From contig CAWJGT010000020.1 of assembly GCA_963842525.1 (NCBI GenBank), positions 64,001 through 128,000 of the forward strand: DNA of 64,000 nucleotides. Reading direction: 5' to 3'. Position 1 is the first letter of the stretch, and each line of letters starts with the position of its first letter. The notes below the pieces were generated by a model, which was not told where the DNA came from, did no database searches, and saw only the letters and a program-made list of their open reading frames with translations. The position numbers and the translations under genes are program-made. This document shows, one piece after another, positions 8,822-47,641 of the stretch. The stretch comes from an uncultured Holophagales bacterium. Lineage in GTDB: Bacteria; Acidobacteriota; Thermoanaerobaculia; Multivoradales; UBA5704.

Positions 8822-8898
8822 GCGGCTATAGCTCAGGTGGACAGAGCAGGAGTTTCCTAAACTCTTGGTCGGGGGTTCGAGTCCTCCTAGCCGCACCA
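8822..8898 (+). tRNA. tRNA-Arg(CCT)
   Basis: Acceptor stem GCGGCTA/TAGCCGC, D arm GCTC..GAGC, anticodon loop TT-CCT-AA, T loop TTCGAGT, encoded CCA end. Confidence 0.95.
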
Positions 8899-37259: not shown

Positions 37260-37897
37260 AGACCCTCCTCGTGATGACCCTGGTTGTCCTGACGTCCCCG
37301 GCTCTGGGTGCGCCGGCCGACCCCCGCTCCCTGGAGGTTCTGCGGTACGACTGCGCCAGCGAGCTCGGACGGCGGGAGGTGACCCTGTTCGGCAACGGCA
37401 CCATCCGCCTGCGCGAGGGTCCGCTGGGCAAGGAGCTGATGGGGCTGGCGGAGCTCAACCCGGACGAGCGGGAGGGCGCGGTGAACCGGCTGAAGGCCGA
37501 GGACCTGTCCGAGGCGAAGCAGCTGCCGAAAGGCCTCGAAGGGGCCTGGATCGAGAAGTGTATGCTGGCTCTCCAGCTTCCCGGCCAGCCGATTCAGGTG
37601 TTCCACTTCGGGCGCTATGACACCCTGCCGCTCGGGATCTCGCGGGTGGTCCAGGTCGCGCAGGACCTGGCCGCAAAGGTGCCGGCTCTTAAAGGGGACG
37701 AGGAGCTTCCGCACGACTACGAGCCGAAGGAGTGGGACGTGCTGAAGCGGGTCGACGGCTACCCCTACCGGGTCGTCGGCTTCACCTGGGACGGCCAGGG
37801 GATCGAGATGCTGGGGCTGGAGCAGCCGATCACGCTCTTCGTGCGCAAGGACCAGCTCCGCAACGAGTTCGTGGCCGTGCTGTCGAGAGGCCGGTGA
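37256..37897 (+). CDS. Hypothetical secreted protein
   Basis: GTGA overlap start; signal peptide VKTLLVMTLVVLTSPALGA; coding-like codon usage. Confidence 0.7.
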   Translation: MKTLLVMTLVVLTSPALGAPADPRSLEVLRYDCASELGRREVTLFGNGTIRLREGPLGKELMGLAELNPDEREGAVNRLKAEDLSEAKQLPKGLEGAWIEKCMLALQLPGQPIQVFHFGRYDTLPLGISRVVQVAQDLAAKVPALKGDEELPHDYEPKEWDVLKRVDGYPYRVVGFTWDGQGIEMLGLEQPITLFVRKDQLRNEFVAVLSRGR

Positions 37898-38451
37898 AGC
37901 CGGGGGTCCGGGTCACCGGGGGGGCGCACCGCGGGCGCGGCCTCGCCGTGCCTCCAGGGGCGCGGCCGACCGAGGGGAGGGTCCGCGAGGCGCTCTTCTC
38001 GATCTGGGGCGACCGCCTGGAAGGTGCGCGGGTCCTCGACCTCTTCGCCGGCAGCGGCATCGTCGGCCTGGAGGCCCTGAGCCGGGGCGCGCTCTCGGCC
38101 CTCTGCGTCGACGAGAGCCTGCGGGCGGTCCAGATGATGGAGCGCAACGCCGGGCTCCTCCAGGAGAAGGCCGCCGAAATCCGCCGCCTCACCCTGCCCG
38201 CCGGCCTGGCGCGTCTGGTCGCGGAAGGCGCCGGCCCGTTCGACCTCGTCTACATCGACCCCCCCTATAATTTCAATCTATATGACGAGCTGCTCGCCGC
38301 CCTGGCGCCACTCCTGACGAAGCACGCCGAGGTGGTCGTCGAGCACTCCTCGCGGCGGGACATGCCGATCCAGGCAGGACCGCTGGTCCGGGTGGATGCG
38401 CGACGGTATGGGGAAGGCTCGCTGAGCTTCTATCGCTGGGAGCCAAGGTAG
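37894..38451 (+). CDS. rsmD: 16S rRNA (guanine966-N2)-methyltransferase
   Basis: RPTEGRVREALFS, VLDLFAGSG..GLEALSRGA and DPPY motifs. Confidence 0.92.
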   Translation: MKPGVRVTGGAHRGRGLAVPPGARPTEGRVREALFSIWGDRLEGARVLDLFAGSGIVGLEALSRGALSALCVDESLRAVQMMERNAGLLQEKAAEIRRLTLPAGLARLVAEGAGPFDLVYIDPPYNFNLYDELLAALAPLLTKHAEVVVEHSSRRDMPIQAGPLVRVDARRYGEGSLSFYRWEPR

Positions 38452-38468: not shown

Positions 38469-40184
38469 ATGACACCTGAACGGCTCCGGCAGCTCCTTGG
38501 CGGCGAGTCCCTCGAAGTCGAGTACAAAAGCGAGCGGAGAGGGCCATTCAACGACCGGGATCTGGTCGAGGCAGTGGTCTGCCTGGCCAATCGGCCGGGA
38601 ACTGGAACCGGCTACCTCCTCCTCGGAGTGGAGGACGATCGCCAGGTGACCGGCGCCAGACCCCGGCACGAAAGCGGTCGGCGGACCGATCCTCTTCTCG
38701 TACAGACATTGATCGCTCACCGGACCAGCCCCTCCCTCATCTGCCGAGCCGAGGTGGTGCCGGTTGAAGAGCGCGAGGTTCTGGTCATTGAGGTACCGGT
38801 CTCAGCAGTGCCGGTCTGCACCACTGACGGAACCTATACGAGGCGAAGGCTCGATCGGCAGGGGCGGCCGGAATGTGTCGCCTTCTCTTATCACGACATG
38901 CAGACGCAGCGGGCCGACCGGGGTCTCCTCGACTACTCTGCCCAGGTTGTCCCCGAAGCGCGGTGGGAAGATCTCGATCCCCTGGAATTCGAGCGGTTTC
39001 GCCGTAACATCCGGGAGAGCGTAGGGGTCGGAGATCGCGCCCTCGATGAGTTGCCGGACTTGGAACTCGCCAAAGCTCTGGGGGCTGTGGAGGCGAACCA
39101 TGAAGTCCGAGCGATTCGGATCCTGGGTCTGTTGCTCTTCGGCACCCCTGAGGCGCTCGGCAAGTGGATCCGCCCCTATGAGGTTGCCTTTCAGGTGCTT
39201 TCCCCTCAGGTCGAGGTCAACGACTTCTTCCACTGGCCGTTGCTGCGGGTGATCGACGAAGTCCTCACCCGCTTTCGTGCCCGCAACCGGGAGGATGAGA
39301 TCTTCGCCGGATTCCAGCGAATCGGAGTTCCCAGCTACTCGGAAATCGCTTTCCGCGAGGCCGTGGCCAACGCCCTCATTCATCGAGATTACACACGCCT
39401 CGGCGCAGTCCACATTCAATGGTGGCCGGATCGGATCGAAATCTCAAACCCCGGAGGGTTTCCTGAAGGCGTCCGGCTCGACAACCTGCTCGACACTACA
39501 CCGCGGCCCCGGAACCCGCTCCTGGCAGACGCTTTCAAGCGAGCCGGAATCGTGGAGCGGACGGCCCGCGGCATTGACACGATCTTCTATGAGCAGCTTC
39601 GGAATGGACGGCCGGAGCCTGATTATGGGAGGACTTCCTCGACGAATGTCGTCCTCGTCCTCCCCGGAGGCGCCGCGGATCTGGCTTTCGTCCGCCGGGT
39701 CGTGGAGCGAGGCCTCGCCGGTGAGCGGCTGGGCCTGCCTTCGCTCCAAGCGTTCTGGCAGGAATGGCAAGGAGCCAAAGCTCAATCCTCGCCCGAGCGC
39801 CTCTTGGAGCCCACCGGTGAGGATGGGCTGATCATCATCTCCATTGGAGGCGAATCCATTCGGCCGACTGTCGAGGCATCCCTTGAAGAGTTGGGTCTTC
39901 ATCCAGCCCTCGTTCTCGTCGACTTCCACTCCACCGAATACGTGGCGCCGGAAAGGAGGGGATGGGAGGCGGAAGCACGGCAGATCCGGAATCTCGTCAA
40001 GAGCTTCGTTGAAGACCCCCGCGTCTCGCGCCTCCACCTCTTCTATCGCGGGCCCGTGGTCCTGGCCCCTTTGCTCGGGGCCTTGATTGCACCCGTCAAG
40101 CCTCTGATCGTCTATTATTACCAGGACGGCGGCTACCGGCCGGCGTACACCTTGAACAGGAGGTTCCTCATCTCCAGAGATTGA
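38469..40184 (+). CDS. Schlafen/AlbA_2 plus HATPase_c_4-type ATP-binding protein with a C-terminal SAVED-like lobe
   Basis: GESLEVEYKSE..VCLAN..GYLLLGVEDD (AlbA_2); REAVANALIHRDY..IEISNPGG..PRNPLLA (HATPase_c_4); C-terminal RLHLFYRGPVVLAPLLG..LIVYYYQDGGY resembles the SAVED C-terminal motif. Confidence 0.8.
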   Translation: MTPERLRQLLGGESLEVEYKSERRGPFNDRDLVEAVVCLANRPGTGTGYLLLGVEDDRQVTGARPRHESGRRTDPLLVQTLIAHRTSPSLICRAEVVPVEEREVLVIEVPVSAVPVCTTDGTYTRRRLDRQGRPECVAFSYHDMQTQRADRGLLDYSAQVVPEARWEDLDPLEFERFRRNIRESVGVGDRALDELPDLELAKALGAVEANHEVRAIRILGLLLFGTPEALGKWIRPYEVAFQVLSPQVEVNDFFHWPLLRVIDEVLTRFRARNREDEIFAGFQRIGVPSYSEIAFREAVANALIHRDYTRLGAVHIQWWPDRIEISNPGGFPEGVRLDNLLDTTPRPRNPLLADAFKRAGIVERTARGIDTIFYEQLRNGRPEPDYGRTSSTNVVLVLPGGAADLAFVRRVVERGLAGERLGLPSLQAFWQEWQGAKAQSSPERLLEPTGEDGLIIISIGGESIRPTVEASLEELGLHPALVLVDFHSTEYVAPERRGWEAEARQIRNLVKSFVEDPRVSRLHLFYRGPVVLAPLLGALIAPVKPLIVYYYQDGGYRPAYTLNRRFLISRD

Positions 40185-40201
40185 AGAGGTCAGGGATGGC
40201 T

Positions 40202-40483
40202 TGACACAAGGCCCTCCGTCGCGCGAGCGGCGGATGCAAATCGGGTGAATTGCCGGAAAGCCCGGGGACGGGTCACCGGCAGCCAAGGCCGGCATGGAGG
40301 ATCGCGATCCGAGGGGCTGGCAAGGTTCAGAGACTAGGACCCGAGCGAAAGCGGTAATGGTCCCACGAGCGCCCGACGCCTCCCTCGGGAGGCGATGAGA
40401 TAGTCCGTTCTACCGACATGATCCGGTGTTTCTTGAAACGGTAGAAGCCGGGGATAAAGAGCCTCGGCGGTAACAAACCCTGG
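40202..40483 (+). ncRNA. Group I intron-like ribozyme, ORF-less and intergenic
   Basis: P/Q/R/S elements AATTGCCGGAAA, CCGGCAGCCAAG, GTTCAGAGACTA and GAGATAGTCC; P3 40241-47/40370-76; P4 40251-56/40276-81; P7 40330-36/40401-06; P8 40377-94; P9 40408-15/40439-46; GNRA loops on P2 and P5. Ends approximate. Confidence 0.88.
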
Positions 40484-40558
40484 CTAAAGTTCCCAGGACC
40501 TCTTCAGCGGCAGCTCATTTTTTCGCCTGACCGGATAGAATCCCCCTCGCCAACGGTC

Positions 40559-41758
40559 ATGCGTCCCATCTCCCAACGCCGGCGCGCCGGCACGCCCTTC
40601 GGCTGCCTGATCCTGTTCTTCGGGATCTTCCTCGCCTTCGGCTCGGTGTTCCTGTACTTCTTTTTCCTGCGGCCGGTCGGAGGCCTGCTGGCAGCCCGCT
40701 CCTGGACAGAGGTGTCCTGCGTGGTGCTGGAGAGCCGGGTGGCCGAGAGCTCCGACTCGGACGGGACCACCTACAAGCCGGACATCCTGTACTCCTACTC
40801 GGTCGGCGGCATCGTCCATCAGTCCCGGCGCTACGACATGATGGAGGCCTATTCGAGCGGCTATGACGGCAAGGCCGAGATCGTGGCCCGCTACCCTCCC
40901 GGCAGGCAGACCTCCTGCTGGGTCGATCCCGCCAACCCGAACGAGGCGGTGCTCTCGCGAGGCTTCTCGGCGGCCTATCTGGTCGGGCTCTTCCCGCTGA
41001 TCTTCGTGGCTGTCGGTGCCTTCGGGCTCATCTGGGCGGTGCGCCAGAAGAACAAGACGCGCACAGCGGCGGCGCGGACGGGTGGCCCTGGCGACATCGC
41101 CTCTCCTTTCGGAGTCCAGATCCCCACCGAAGCCGCGGGTCCACTGGAGCTGCGGCCCAAGATGACGCGCCTCGGCAAGCTGCTCGGCCTTCTTTTCGCC
41201 AGCGTCTTCTGGAACGGGATCGTCTCGGTCTTCGTCTGGCAGGCCGTACAGCTCTGGCGGCAAGGACAACCGGACGGCTGCATGACCACGTTCCTGATCC
41301 CCTTCGTCCTGATCGGCCTGCTCCTGATCTTCGGCGTGTTCCAACAGCTCCTGGTGCTGTTCAATCCCCGTCTGAAGATCACGCTCAGCCGGGGTGTGCT
41401 CGCGCCGGGAGAGCCCGTCCACCTCCAATGGACGCTCTCGGGACGGGCTGCCGGTGTCCACCGCCTGCAGATCGTGTTGGAAGGGAAGGAAGAGGCCACC
41501 TACCGCCGCGGCACCGACACCTGCACCGACCGCGAGACCTTCGCCTTGGTCACGGTCGTCGATACGACCGAGCCCTTCACGATCCCGGCCGGCTCGGCGC
41601 CTCTCGAAGCGCCCGCCGGGACCATGCCCTCGTTCGCAGCCGAGCACAACAAGATCATCTGGACGCTGAAAGCTGTCTGTGAGATCCCCGGCTGGCCCGA
41701 TTCCGAGGACGAGTACGAGATCCTGGTGGCCCCCGGGAGCTATGGAGGCTGGTCGTGA
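40559..41758 (+). CDS. DUF3592-domain membrane protein
   Basis: TM helix, then SW.EV.C.VLES.V..SDSDGTTYKPDILYSY..C.VDP.NP.EAVL; further TM helices and a soluble beta domain. Confidence 0.75.
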   Translation: MRPISQRRRAGTPFGCLILFFGIFLAFGSVFLYFFFLRPVGGLLAARSWTEVSCVVLESRVAESSDSDGTTYKPDILYSYSVGGIVHQSRRYDMMEAYSSGYDGKAEIVARYPPGRQTSCWVDPANPNEAVLSRGFSAAYLVGLFPLIFVAVGAFGLIWAVRQKNKTRTAAARTGGPGDIASPFGVQIPTEAAGPLELRPKMTRLGKLLGLLFASVFWNGIVSVFVWQAVQLWRQGQPDGCMTTFLIPFVLIGLLLIFGVFQQLLVLFNPRLKITLSRGVLAPGEPVHLQWTLSGRAAGVHRLQIVLEGKEEATYRRGTDTCTDRETFALVTVVDTTEPFTIPAGSAPLEAPAGTMPSFAAEHNKIIWTLKAVCEIPGWPDSEDEYEILVAPGSYGGWS

Positions 41759-45022: not shown

Positions 45023-47641
45023 ATGGCTGAAGTCGTCATCCCCTCCAACGTAGTCGCCACCGTGCTGGCTCCCGAGACCCGTCTTGGCCGCCCGTCCCTC
45101 GCCGCATACATCCCGCCGGGGGGGACGTCCGATCCGGACGAGATCCTCTCGCGGTTCCTGGAGTGGGTATCCGCGATCGGGCTCGAGCTCTATCCGGCGC
45201 AGGAAGAGGCCCTGCTCGAGATCATGGCGGGCCGGCACGTCATCTTGAACACCCCGACCGGGTCGGGCAAGTCGCTGGTCGCCCTCGGCCTCCACTTCAA
45301 GGCCATGTGCGAAGGCAAGACCTCCTACTACACCAGCCCCATCAAGGCCCTGGCGAGCGAGAAGTTCTTCTCCCTGTGCGATGAGCTCGGCGCGGTCAAC
45401 GTCGGCATGCTGACCGGCGACGCCAGTATCAACCCCGACGCCAAGGTGCTCTGCTGCACGGCCGAGGTGCTCGCCAACATGGCGCTGCGCGAGGGGGAAG
45501 GGCTCGACGCCCCCTACGTGGTGATGGACGAGTTCCACTACTACTCGGACCGCGAACGCGGCTGGGCCTGGCAGGTCCCTCTCCTGCTGCTGCCGCGGAC
45601 CCGCTTCCTCCTCATGTCCGCCACCCTCGGCGATGTGAGCGCCATCGCGGAGCACGTCCAGGAACGGACCGGCGTCGAGGTGGCCGTCGTCAGCTCCGAG
45701 CATCGCCCCGTCCCTCTCGACTTTGAATACCGGGAGACGCCGCTCCACGAGACCGTGGAAGTCCTGCTCAAAGAGGGCAAGGCGCCGATCTACATCGTGA
45801 ATTTCACCCAGCGGGAGTGCGCCGAGCTCGCCCAGGCCTTGACCAGCATGCAGATCACCACCCGCGAGGAGCGCGAGCGCATCCGCGACGCGATCGGCAA
45901 TTACCGGCTCGACACCCCGTACGGCAAGGAGTTCCGCCGCTTCCTCTCCTTCGGCGTTGGGGTCCACCATGCGGGCCTCTTGCCCAAATACCGCCTGCTC
46001 GTGGAGCAGCTCTCGCAGCACGCGCTCCTCAAGATCATCTGCGGCACCGACACCCTGGGCGTGGGGGTCAACATCCCGATCCGTACCGTGCTCTTCACCA
46101 AGCTCGCCAAGTACGACGGCAACAAGACCTCACTCCTGTCGGTCCGCGACTTCAAGCAGATCGCCGGCCGCGCCGGCCGCAAGGGGTTCGACGACAAGGG
46201 CAGCGTGGTCTCCCAGGCGCCCGAGCACATCATCGAGAAGCGCAAGAGCGAGAGCAGCGGCAAGAAAGGCAAGGTCTTCAAGGGGCCGGCCAAGGGGGAG
46301 GTCTCGTGGACCCAGGAGACCTTCGAGAAGCTCATCCAGCGCCCGCCGGAGACGCTCAAATCCCGGTTCCATATCACCCACGGCATGGTGCTCAACCTCC
46401 TGCAGCACGATGCCGAGCAGGACGACCCGAACCTCCGCAACTTCGACTCCCTCCGGGAGCTGATCCGCCGCAGCCATGAGGACGAGGGAAGCAAGAAGCG
46501 CCTCCTGACCCAGGCCGCGGTCCTGGTCCGCTCCCTGTACCGCTCCGGCATCATCCGTATGAAGCGGGATTCGGTGACCGACTACCTGTGGGCCGTGATC
46601 GCCGAAGACCTCCAGTGGGATTTCTCGCTGTTCCACGCCCTGTCGCTCTATCTCGTCGAGACCGTCGGCCGGCTGGAGCCCGAGTCGCCGGACTATTCGT
46701 TCAACCTGATCTCGCTGGCCGAGTCGATCCTGGAGAACCCGGACATCATCCTCCGCCGCCAGGAGGACAAGCTGAAGCAGGCGCTCCTCGCCCAGCTCAA
46801 GACGGACCACGTCCCCTATGAGGAGCGGATGGAGAAGCTGGAGACAGTGAGCTATCCCAAGCCGCTCTCCGATTTCCTCTACGGCACCTTCAACATGTTC
46901 CGCGGCCACCACCCCTGGGTAGGAGGCGAGGACATCCGCCCGAAGTCGATCGGCCGCGAGATGTGGGAGGGCTATCTGAGCTTCGCGGACTACGTGAAGC
47001 ACTACGGCCTCCAGAGGAGCGAAGGGGTGCTGCTGCGTTACCTCTCGCAGCTCTATCGGACGCTCGACCTGAACGTCCCCGAGGCGGTCAAGAACGAGGC
47101 GGTGCTCGACGCGCTCGGCTTCCTGCGCACCGTGCTGGAGCACACCGACACGAGCCTGCTGGAGGAGTGGGAGAGCCTGATCCACCCCGAGCTGGTCCTG
47201 CAGCGGGGCGAGCAGCGGAAGGTGGCGACCGAGGCGCTGTGGATCGAAGAGCTGGTCCACGACCCGAAAGCCTTTGCCGCCCGGGTGCGCGCCGAGATGC
47301 ATCTCCTGGTAAGGGCCCTGGCAAGCCGGGACTGGGAAGAGGCCGCCGCCTCGATCCGCCAGGACCCGGACGATCCCGAGACCGTCTGGGACGCCGAGCG
47401 TTTCGAGGCCGCACTGGAGCCCTTCTTCGCCGAATACAGCGAGCTCGTCTTCACCGCCGAGGCCCGCCGCCATCAGTGGACCCAGGTCCGTCCCACGGGA
47501 ACGCCCCGCGTCTGGGAGGTGAGCCACACCCTCGTCGACCCCCAGGGAGACAACCTCTGGGCCCTCCTCGGCACCATCGACCTCAGCCGTCCCGACGAGA
47601 TCGACGGGCCCCTCCTGCGGCTGCAGAGGATCGGGCCGTGA
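45023..47641 (+). CDS. Ski2/HelY-like DEAD/DEAH helicase (DUF3516 C-terminus)
   Basis: TPTGSGKS, MDEFHYY, MSAT, HHAGLLP, TDTLGVGVN and QIAGRAGR motifs. Confidence 0.92.
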   Translation: MAEVVIPSNVVATVLAPETRLGRPSLAAYIPPGGTSDPDEILSRFLEWVSAIGLELYPAQEEALLEIMAGRHVILNTPTGSGKSLVALGLHFKAMCEGKTSYYTSPIKALASEKFFSLCDELGAVNVGMLTGDASINPDAKVLCCTAEVLANMALREGEGLDAPYVVMDEFHYYSDRERGWAWQVPLLLLPRTRFLLMSATLGDVSAIAEHVQERTGVEVAVVSSEHRPVPLDFEYRETPLHETVEVLLKEGKAPIYIVNFTQRECAELAQALTSMQITTREERERIRDAIGNYRLDTPYGKEFRRFLSFGVGVHHAGLLPKYRLLVEQLSQHALLKIICGTDTLGVGVNIPIRTVLFTKLAKYDGNKTSLLSVRDFKQIAGRAGRKGFDDKGSVVSQAPEHIIEKRKSESSGKKGKVFKGPAKGEVSWTQETFEKLIQRPPETLKSRFHITHGMVLNLLQHDAEQDDPNLRNFDSLRELIRRSHEDEGSKKRLLTQAAVLVRSLYRSGIIRMKRDSVTDYLWAVIAEDLQWDFSLFHALSLYLVETVGRLEPESPDYSFNLISLAESILENPDIILRRQEDKLKQALLAQLKTDHVPYEERMEKLETVSYPKPLSDFLYGTFNMFRGHHPWVGGEDIRPKSIGREMWEGYLSFADYVKHYGLQRSEGVLLRYLSQLYRTLDLNVPEAVKNEAVLDALGFLRTVLEHTDTSLLEEWESLIHPELVLQRGEQRKVATEALWIEELVHDPKAFAARVRAEMHLLVRALASRDWEEAAASIRQDPDDPETVWDAERFEAALEPFFAEYSELVFTAEARRHQWTQVRPTGTPRVWEVSHTLVDPQGDNLWALLGTIDLSRPDEIDGPLLRLQRIGP

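Follow-up and report, generated by a model that had tools for sequence, protein, structure and literature searches.

A group I ribozyme found behind a family of SAVED-domain genes: a candidate two-part module in an uncultured Holophagales bacterium

The window analysed here is a stretch of 64,000 nucleotides (nt) from an uncultured Holophagales bacterium (assembly GCA_963842525.1, contig CAWJGT010000020.1, positions 64,001 to 128,000 of the forward strand), whose genome spans 9.95 Mb and is 96.4% complete. On the forward strand of the window, a gene for a protein of 571 amino acids (aa) at 38469..40184 is followed by a group I intron, or ribozyme, of 288 nt at 40202..40489. A first-pass annotation had proposed that the two form a two-part system. 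Here we describe both parts, their co-occurrence in other genomes and the roles that the ribozyme may play.

Gene and ribozyme at the locus

The gene was taken from the list of open reading frames (ORFs), and its product was searched with Pfam, NCBIfam and PADLOC models. The AlbA_2, HATPase and SAVED-like parts that had been read into the protein at first pass were all recovered by profile search: Pfam placed SLFN_AlbA_2 at aa 13-127 (50.1 bits), HATPase_c_4 at aa 313-392 (68.8 bits) and SAVED (PF18145) at aa 494-561 (27.8 bits against a cut-off of 26.2). The SAVED alignment covers profile positions 118-189 only, which is the second half of the profile. The NCBIfam SAVED model NF033611 scored 40.7 bits (cut-off 33), and the PADLOC SAVED models scored up to 40.9 bits. 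The last 185 aa were modelled with AlphaFold2 on the basis of 27 relatives; the model had a mean predicted local distance difference test (pLDDT) of 78.8 and values above 85 over residues 61-180. Its top Foldseek match in the PDB was Cap4 (6vm6, E value 1.7e-5), and further top matches were a viral SAVED ring nuclease (9r8s), Cap5 (8ysq), SAVED-CHAT (8tl0), CalpL (9eyj) and TIR-SAVED. The SAVED entries down to rank 26 align over 111-129 columns, that is, over one lobe; two fused CARF-like lobes in one chain are not what the protein has, as only one lobe aligns. Judging from the model, the C-terminal domain is a SAVED/CARF fold of one lobe, encoded at 39813..40160 (+; aa ~449-564), and it is with this part of the protein that the ribozyme co-occurs. 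A 2-fold homodimer of the single lobe, joined through the motif that is most conserved, was also modelled and scored 0.80 against 0.30 for the best control; the mark for a homodimer was reached by 20 of 30 solved pairs and by 1 of 23 single chains. At least 98% of the contacts agreed between runs, and the partner pLDDT was at least 84. This pass may stem from the likeness of the lobe to solved CARF/SAVED dimers.

For the RNA, the Rfam model RF00028 (Intron_gpI) matched 40162..40425 (+) over its full length (1-253) with 55.9 bits (gathering cut-off 50, E value 1.7e-11), and this is the sole match to the model in the window and in the whole genome. Relatives of the ribozyme score 54-62.8 bits. 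No other Rfam family matched at the window ribozyme, hence no recognised aptamer. In the consensus structure, the elements of the intron follow in the order P2, P3, P4-P5, P6/6a/6b, P7, P8, P9, P9.1 (40447-40468) and tail, and the window intron has an extra hairpin between P7 and P3' at 40337-40363. The conserved RNA extends past the Rfam model to G40489: beyond P9 come P9.1 (loop GAUAAAGAG), GGUAACAA, 5-7 variable bases and the tail at 40482..40489 (+), which consists of GGCU (a copy of the 5'-exon end), AAA and G40489. We took G40489 as the predicted terminal G, which sets the intron at 40202-40489.

Covariation was assessed on an alignment of 26 relatives (A1), whose consensus has 67 pairs in 13 helices. 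Compensatory changes on both sides occurred in 42 of the 67 pairs, and 97.5% of the cells were paired; none of 500 shuffles came as high, and slid controls reached 29-45% pairing. In the P1 hairpin (40198..40213, +), the 5'-exon end GGCU (40198-40201) pairs with the guide sequence GGCC (40210-40213) through a U40201.G40210 wobble. This U.G is present in 25 of the 26 sequences (columns 21-25/36-40), and the pair next to it covaries (UA 19, CG 4, AU 1). The first-pass annotation had set the 5' splice site 17 nt past the stop codon, which agrees with the invariant P1 U.G, the site following U40201. The end that it had given, 40485, needs correction; that base is the U of the tail GGCU, four bases before the terminal G40489. 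A 5' splice site 11 nt before the stop codon, which would place the intron in the coding frame, was considered and rejected: the P1 given by cmscan differs from relative to relative, and the invariant U.G hairpin stands after the stop. The RF00028 score, the P1 U.G together with the terminal G, and the covarying core helices P3-P9 mark the RNA as a group I intron. A homing endonuclease ORF is absent, as 288 nt leave no room for one, and no endonuclease family stands beside 16 of the loci described below. Across relatives, hardly any variation is seen in the loops or in the inner portion of the extra hairpin.

The exon flanks pair with each other. The 5'-exon strand (40182..40196, +), which starts with the stop codon UGA, and the 3'-exon strand (40491..40506, +) form a duplex of -27.5 kcal/mol, and 0 of 33 non-cognate partners bind better. 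Over 34 loci, the cognate flanks had a mean of -29.5 kcal/mol and the non-cognate combinations a mean of -18.4 (standard deviation 6.3, n = 1122). At most two of the 33 foreign partners outdid the cognate one in 25 of the 34 loci; L040, L054 and L093 were worst, with 10-11. The helix is 10-16 bp long and has no evident function of its own; it extends up to the stop codon in the window, and in some loci (for example L039) it takes in the last codons. As judged from these duplexes, the helix covaries, and it represents an exon-exon pairing as in tRNA introns. Other explanations of it were tried and dropped. It was considered as P10 of a P1-less GIR1-like ribozyme, for which the supposed P2 proved to be P1 and the helix the exon-exon pairing. 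A role as intrinsic terminator was dropped too, because the inspected loci show no U-tract behind it and the terminator scan is at chance level. An RNA-level constraint on the AGG AGG codons of the conserved Arg-Arg was likewise discarded, since other loci use CGA AGG, CGT CGA and others.

The surroundings are those reported at first pass, with a Cons_hypoth95/RsmD-type methyltransferase gene upstream (37732-38451) and a DUF3592 gene downstream (40559-41758), both by Pfam. The accompanying description of the pair as an inserted unit holds in part: one of five genomes of the same genus (G003) has the methyltransferase gene, ~360 nt and then the DUF3592 gene, with no module, but the downstream region differs in the other four. 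No promoter-like site was found between ORF and ribozyme in the scan, and terminator-like sites numbered 3 against 1.9 expected, none of them in this gap. With a gap free of promoters and credible terminators, and with the comparative data below, both the proposed two-part system and its co-transcription are supported, the ribozyme lying in the 3' untranslated region (UTR) of the gene. Elsewhere in the window, a tRNA-Arg(CCU) at 8822-8898 is the only tRNA, and an 872-aa DEAD-box helicase with DUF3516 (45023-47641) lies a few kb downstream of the module; its presence near the module is not conserved in other loci.

Spread of the ribozyme and its linkage to a SAVED family

The ribozyme subfamily was defined by three DNA-pattern scans of 185,579 species genomes and one protein-first scan. 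A strict pattern gave 18 loci, a relaxed P7-based pattern 74, and a third pattern (P7 3' strand plus P9.1 loop) 37. When the 74 loci and the window were scored with a family profile (nhmmer), 34 reached 219-322 bits and 41 stayed at 87 bits or less. Counting L124/L164, L162, L169 and L163 in addition to the 34, the subfamily comprises 38 loci. The scores leave a clear gap: subfamily members have at least 219 bits, and the best piece at the other scored pattern hits has at most 113 bits, these other hits including two broken subfamily copies, L165 and L167. The members come from Acidobacteriota, Myxococcota, Actinomycetota, Cyanobacteriota, Bacillota, Aminicenantes and KSB3, and from metagenome-assembled genomes (MAGs) labelled Proteobacteria and Enterobacterales. 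Cultured carriers are Enhygromyxa salina DSM 15201, Sphaerisporangium aureirubrum JCM 30346, two Actinoplanes strains and Nodosilinea sp. P-1105.

The low-scoring relatives point to the origin of the subfamily. ARAGORN reads 28 of the 41 as an intron-split tRNA-Thr, tRNA-Asn or tRNA-Leu; a tRNA-like host for the subfamily itself was rejected, as ARAGORN reads none of its 34 loci as a tRNA. The 5' exons of these tRNA introns end in GGCU or CGCU, and at their 3' ends P9 is followed by just five or six bases; all 28 listed are without P9.1, without the long tail and without the GGCU copy. Because the tRNA introns share the GGCU/CGCU exon end but have no such 3' extension, we place the window ribozyme, on sequence grounds, in a derived subfamily of tRNA-type introns with a 3' extension of its own. 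The tail (G/C)GCU + 2-5 nt + G is kept in 38 of 38 loci, the GGCU copy standing 3-6 nt ahead of the terminal G, beyond which the bases vary freely. Carriage by phages was considered and rejected, since 0 of 26 viral-contig pattern hits belong to the subfamily. Across phyla, the SAVED proteins drop to 13-20% identity, yet the ribozyme core hardly varies. Compensatory changes in 42 of the 67 pairs, the near-invariant core and the covarying exon helix together argue that the ribozyme is under selection, though splicing restores no reading frame.

Searches starting from the RNA and from the protein gave the same picture. Starting from the RNA, a same-strand ORF ending in SAVED stops before the ribozyme in 32 of the 37 assessable loci (the 38 minus L163, which is at a contig edge), and the distance from stop codon to 5' splice site is 15-50 nt in the loci measured. 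A one-lobe ORF ends 144-173 nt before the core pattern in 24 loci including the window, and L124 is the 25th. A full two-lobe SAVED stands at the ORF C-terminus in seven loci (L062, L075, L093, L103, L106, L162 and L169), with Pfam scores of 23.2-90.2 bits, L093 at 23.2 being below the cut-off of 26.2. Starting from the protein, the one-lobe domain was detected at 12 loci, and the ribozyme was present at every one of them (12 of 12). Of 100 genomes related to that of the window, four match aa 448-571; the same four have an above-threshold intron match, and the two matches are adjacent in all four. The check suggested at first pass, to collect homologs and search downstream of them for the ribozyme, was thus positive in both directions.

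What precedes the SAVED part changes from locus to locus. It is AlbA_2 plus HATPase_c_4 in most ribozyme-linked loci, an XRE-type helix-turn-helix (HTH_3) in the 210-aa protein of two Actinoplanes strains, a ParA-like/KGGVGR ATPase in L106, L162 and L169, and AAA-ATPase_like plus PDDEXK_9 in L093; it is short or unassigned in L103 and L062. For the N-terminal 430 aa, the homologs closest in sequence, with 65% and 49% identity, have a winged-helix end (HTH_24/MarR_2) and no ribozyme. The CHAT-SAVED and TIR-SAVED genes of the window's genome (contig C14) have none either. Since the winged-helix homologs are without the ribozyme, and other N-termini joined to SAVED are with it, the linkage is to the SAVED part; by this comparison, the ribozyme appears to track a particular SAVED group, neither SAVED in general nor the Schlafen/ATPase part. 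Among 67 neighbouring ORFs of 16 loci, no shared family, SMODS or Cas10 was found. We describe a SAVED family that has a self-processing RNA as its one constant partner and that has spread across phyla by horizontal transfer. That gene and ribozyme work together is, in our view, highly probable.

Several loci deserve separate mention. One Polyangiaceae MAG holds two modules on different contigs, L104 with AlbA_2/HATPase_c_4, a one-lobe SAVED and the spacer AAAG, and L169 with a ParA-like ATPase, a full SAVED and the spacer ACGUG. The only defence-type neighbour in the 16 loci is in a Haliangium MAG, where a gene for an Eco57I-type restriction-modification methylase (L037:3664-5496) lies immediately upstream of the SAVED gene. 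In L050, the SAVED domain is in a 101-aa ORF behind a helicase ORF, and the gene may be frameshifted. L040 and L047 have a tandem tail duplication (GGCUAAG, nine bases, then GGCUAAAG), of which only the second copy abuts the exon helix. Decayed copies exist as well. In L165 (about 1000-1130), a deletion removed the SAVED lobe and the 5' half of the ribozyme, so that a truncated AlbA_2/HATPase_c_4 ORF runs into the ribozyme 3' half; in L167 (97-243 and 509-624), the ribozyme is split by an insert of ~265 nt; and the copy in L046 is degenerate. Two other group I introns, L166 (4536-4623, Nevskia MAG) and L168 (3050-3133, Lysinibacter MAG), share the P9.1 loop and the GAUAACA tail with the subfamily and have no GGCU copy; their 3' flanks are alike and look protein-coding. 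A different group I intron match, L006 (G084:C1:584285-584510), is below threshold at 41.9 bits and has a weak match of tmRNA/tRNA-like type at its side; an ordinary intron within the gene of a small RNA is the probable explanation.

Probable processing of the intron and its possible roles

The interpretation that we favour, with a probability of roughly 0.42, is a conserved two-part module made of a SAVED effector or regulator gene and an endonuclease-less group I ribozyme in its 3' UTR. Because the P1 U.G wobble, the guanosine-site helix P7 and the terminal G are all kept, the window ribozyme most likely self-splices. Self-splicing would leave an mRNA with a 3' hairpin and free the 288-nt intron. 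By a rule that goes back to work on Tetrahymena and is cited in the Azoarcus paper (PMC13168695), group I introns circularise where a 5'-exon-like stretch docks on the guide sequence, and the best such stretch in the subfamily is the tail GGCU. In our scheme, the GGCU copy would dock on the guide sequence, and the bond after it would be cut, for which the RNA's own terminal G is the simplest candidate. A cut by the terminal G would give a ring of 3-6 nt, and a cut by a free G or water a linear piece; in the window the piece would be AAAG (A40486-G40489), possibly cyclic. The new GGCU-3'OH could rejoin the 5' end of the intron in the reverse of the first splicing step, which would yield a circle like the one found in the RNA run X9. 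The SAVED domain would then sense the small product or the processed intron, with the ribozyme in the place of the CD-NTase of cyclic oligonucleotide-based antiphage signalling systems (CBASS) or of the Cas10 of type III CRISPR, and the pair might serve in defence. Known SAVED ligands fall in the size class of 3-6 nt.

Evidence on the fate of the intron comes from four metatranscriptomes that hold the conserved core of relatives. In run X9, two contigs of relatives have the tail GGCU joined directly to intron nucleotide 1. The first (304 nt, depth 8) runs from P9 through the tail and 12 letters ending GGCU-AAC to the guide sequence and the rest of the intron, and about 25-30 nt of its start are repeated at its end, as for a closed cycle in a k=31 graph. 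The second (151 nt) runs from P7/P9 through 57 unaligned letters to GGCU and the P1 loop. Both junctions are without the last A(A)AG. Such a permuted order was found in DNA, by pattern, in none of the 185,579 genomes and in 2 chance matches among 241 million metagenome records. Overall, a stable circular form of the intron seems to exist in relatives. In run X19, one contig continues linearly past the 3' splice site. One RNA contig of that run, aligned at 40209-40333, begins with sequencing-adapter letters followed directly by GGCU and the P1 loop, a single record in which the fragment end falls exactly at the first G of GGCU.

The 3' element specific to the subfamily and the circular junctions in RNA libraries sharpen the idea that the ribozyme supplies the SAVED ligand, which we hold tentatively and put somewhat short of even odds. 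That the supplied ligand is a small ring is more doubtful. Equally doubtful is the fullest version, in which the ribozyme would be an RNA-only signal synthase whose cyclic, 3',5'-linked AAAG switches on the co-encoded SAVED protein, with a ring size that matches the symmetry of the receptor. The predicted pieces elsewhere are AAG, CGAG, AGAG, GAG, UAG, ACGAG, ACGUG and AAAAAG. Their length is an even number in 21 of the 25 one-lobe loci and an odd number in all 7 two-lobe loci. These counts come from related sequences, which are not independent, and the position of the terminal G is ambiguous where another G follows it. This parity is weakly consistent with a small product, and so, again weakly, is the modelled homodimer of the single lobe.

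A number of points weigh against this interpretation. No public sequencing run contains the window (best share of words 0.10). The X9 contigs are 85-95% alike to the window and represent two relatives in one run; an unassembled tandem DNA repeat is a possible alternative source of their junctions. The GGCU copy and the guide sequence are both invariant, so that covariation lends their pairing no support. We know of no precedent for a ring of 3-6 nt from a group I active site. The nearest precedent for so small a ring is the 3-nt lariat of the lariat-capping ribozyme. A ligand and a receptor that come from one transcript have no obvious trigger. Co-occurrence would also result from shared ancestry after a single insertion, and there is no SAVED ORF upstream in 5 of the 37 loci (L041, L057, L070, L068 and L086). 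Some of these five can be qualified. L041 has a DUF1501 gene upstream, and its ribozyme nests in a SAVED-linked clade (support 95/82) of a ribozyme tree that is otherwise too poorly resolved to be set against receptor type; its SAVED gene was therefore probably lost secondarily. The upstream proteins of L068 and L086 are homologous to each other and match PADLOC C3a59, a type III CRISPR ancillary family, with 36.7 and 21.7 bits. Finally, the real ligand in the window's genome could be a type III cyclic oligoadenylate, because CHAT-SAVED and TIR-SAVED genes stand there beside a weak Csm1-like match. These genes are ~15 kb apart on contig C14 (144310-144861, 151397-151834 and 159117-159671; L113, L160 and L114), and between them an 894-aa ORF matches a Csm1-like model with 28.8 bits against a cut-off of 170; the locus is probably a divergent type III CRISPR-like signalling locus.

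These matches bear on the question of who else could make a signal. The absence of a CD-NTase or Cas10 gene from the window, noted at first pass, extends further for the former: no SMODS was found in the window's whole genome, in the complete genome of Actinoplanes sp. CA-131856 or in Enhygromyxa salina. The Csm1/Cmr2 models had no match in the latter two genomes; the only two Csm1-like matches, both sub-threshold, are in the window's genome on other contigs (C14 and C12). SMODS is present elsewhere in three myxobacterial host genomes. If the SAVED ligand were made elsewhere in the cell, the ribozyme could act in cis: whether it splices or not would determine how stable or abundant the effector mRNA is, for instance through formation of a protective hairpin at the 3' end. 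Coupling to translation may be involved, as the exon helix of the window has the stop codon as its first three bases. The uninterrupted transcript, the exon helix that touches the stop codon in the window or the last codons elsewhere (e.g. L039), and a possible cyclase elsewhere in the window's genome and in three of five other host genomes tested would all suit such regulation. It also has a parallel in the exapted endonuclease-less group I ribozyme that controls a neighbour gene in Clostridium difficile, as described in the review PMC8987985. Nevertheless, we consider it unlikely, since it leaves unexplained a SAVED partner across unrelated N-termini and winged-helix paralogs of the same N-terminal architecture that carry no ribozyme, and the conserved GGCU copy close to the 3' end would be left without a role. 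Moreover, Actinoplanes and Enhygromyxa are without a detectable cyclase, and stop-to-splice-site distances that range over 15-50 nt make coupling to termination not general.

The RNA might instead act as a partner or antidote, the SAVED domain binding the structured intron, linear or circular, or its tail as a stoichiometric partner; the RNA would check or guide the effector in the style of type III toxin-antitoxin systems. The strict one-to-one linkage in cis would be expected then, the near-invariant loops and inner extra hairpin are what protein contact sites would look like, and there seems to be a stable circle. We regard this as improbable: a mere scaffold would not need the conserved catalytic core, there is neither a repeat array nor the RNA-before-toxin order of known type III pairs, and solved SAVED domains bind small cyclic or linear oligonucleotides, not folded RNAs, to judge from the titles of the PDB entries. 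Descent in place of function is the remaining explanation, in which a selfish intron of the tRNA type once entered the loop of a hairpin behind an ancestral SAVED gene and was then inherited and transferred as a relict. The related introns are indeed ordinary tRNA introns with the same 5'-exon end GGCU, and decaying or displaced copies occur (L041 without a SAVED gene, the L165 remnant, the L167 insert and the degenerate L046). Yet splicing in a UTR would be unselected, and the core has stayed near identical over the divergence of the SAVED proteins given above; conserved 3' elements were gained, not lost; the one-lobe family has no intron-less allele (12/12); and neither a homing endonuclease ORF nor a viral-contig hit within the subfamily points to mobility. 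A relict is thus quite improbable.

Comparison with known systems

The closest known RNAs are the group I introns in bacterial tRNA anticodon loops (tRNA-Thr, -Asn and -Leu; the Azoarcus tRNA-Ile type). They share with the subfamily the core with identical P7 strands, the GGCU/CGCU 5'-exon end held on the guide through a U.G, an exon pairing like the anticodon stem, and the lack of an endonuclease. By contrast, the host of the subfamily is not a tRNA (ARAGORN, 0/34 against 28/41 among the relatives), its members are fixed behind SAVED genes, and they have gained P9.1, a long tail and, ahead of the terminal G, a copy of the 5'-exon end. In Azoarcus, the solved tRNA-type case, the circles retain the terminal G and are 3 or 5 nt short at the 5' end (PMC13168695). 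The X9 junction differs in keeping intron nucleotide 1 and in being without the 3' end.

Among signalling systems, CBASS and type III CRISPR resemble the module in having a C-terminal SAVED sensor on varied effector domains. They differ in several respects. A CBASS operon has a SMODS gene, and none was found in 16 loci or in the window's genome; ancillary effectors of type III CRISPR have a Cas10 and a CRISPR locus nearby, and there is no Csm1/Cmr2 match near the window. No cyclase gene is present in the locus, nor anywhere in two of the host genomes; the only conserved partner is an RNA, and the window type has one SAVED lobe, not two. Type III toxin-antitoxin systems have tandem RNA repeats upstream of the toxin gene, whereas here a single structured RNA lies downstream, with no tandem DNA form. 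The lariat-capping (GIR1) ribozyme is derived from group I introns and makes a three-nucleotide ring beside the terminal-G site; it has lost P1 and branches through a 2'-OH. In the subfamily P1 is intact and the nucleotides past the terminal G are not conserved, which sets it apart from lariat-capping ribozymes.

To our knowledge, all signals that SAVED and CARF sensors are known to receive are the products of protein enzymes (CD-NTases and Cas10). If the ribozyme makes the ligand or is the ligand, it would be the first natural ribozyme to act as a signal generator, and the long-known circularisation chemistry of group I introns would gain a physiological role. If the synthase version is true, there would be a second-messenger pathway with a catalytic RNA as its 'cyclase'. 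In the literature searched, with subscription journals and supplements outside its scope, no published description of a ribozyme-SAVED pairing was found. A precedent for a host role is a group I ribozyme of Clostridium difficile under the control of a c-di-GMP-II riboswitch, reportedly the subject of a 2010 study by Lee et al. Like the window's ribozyme, it is endonuclease-less, lies outside a coding frame, serves a neighbour gene and is linked to a second messenger, and it follows an aptamer in a 5' UTR and restores a ribosome-binding site (PMC8987985). The window's ribozyme, by contrast, is a 3'-UTR element without a recognised aptamer, and its link is to a sensor protein. Even on the most cautious interpretation, 'orphan' SAVED effectors are flagged as part of a system, and the ribozyme is a second clear bacterial group I ribozyme recruited for a host function, after that of Clostridium difficile.

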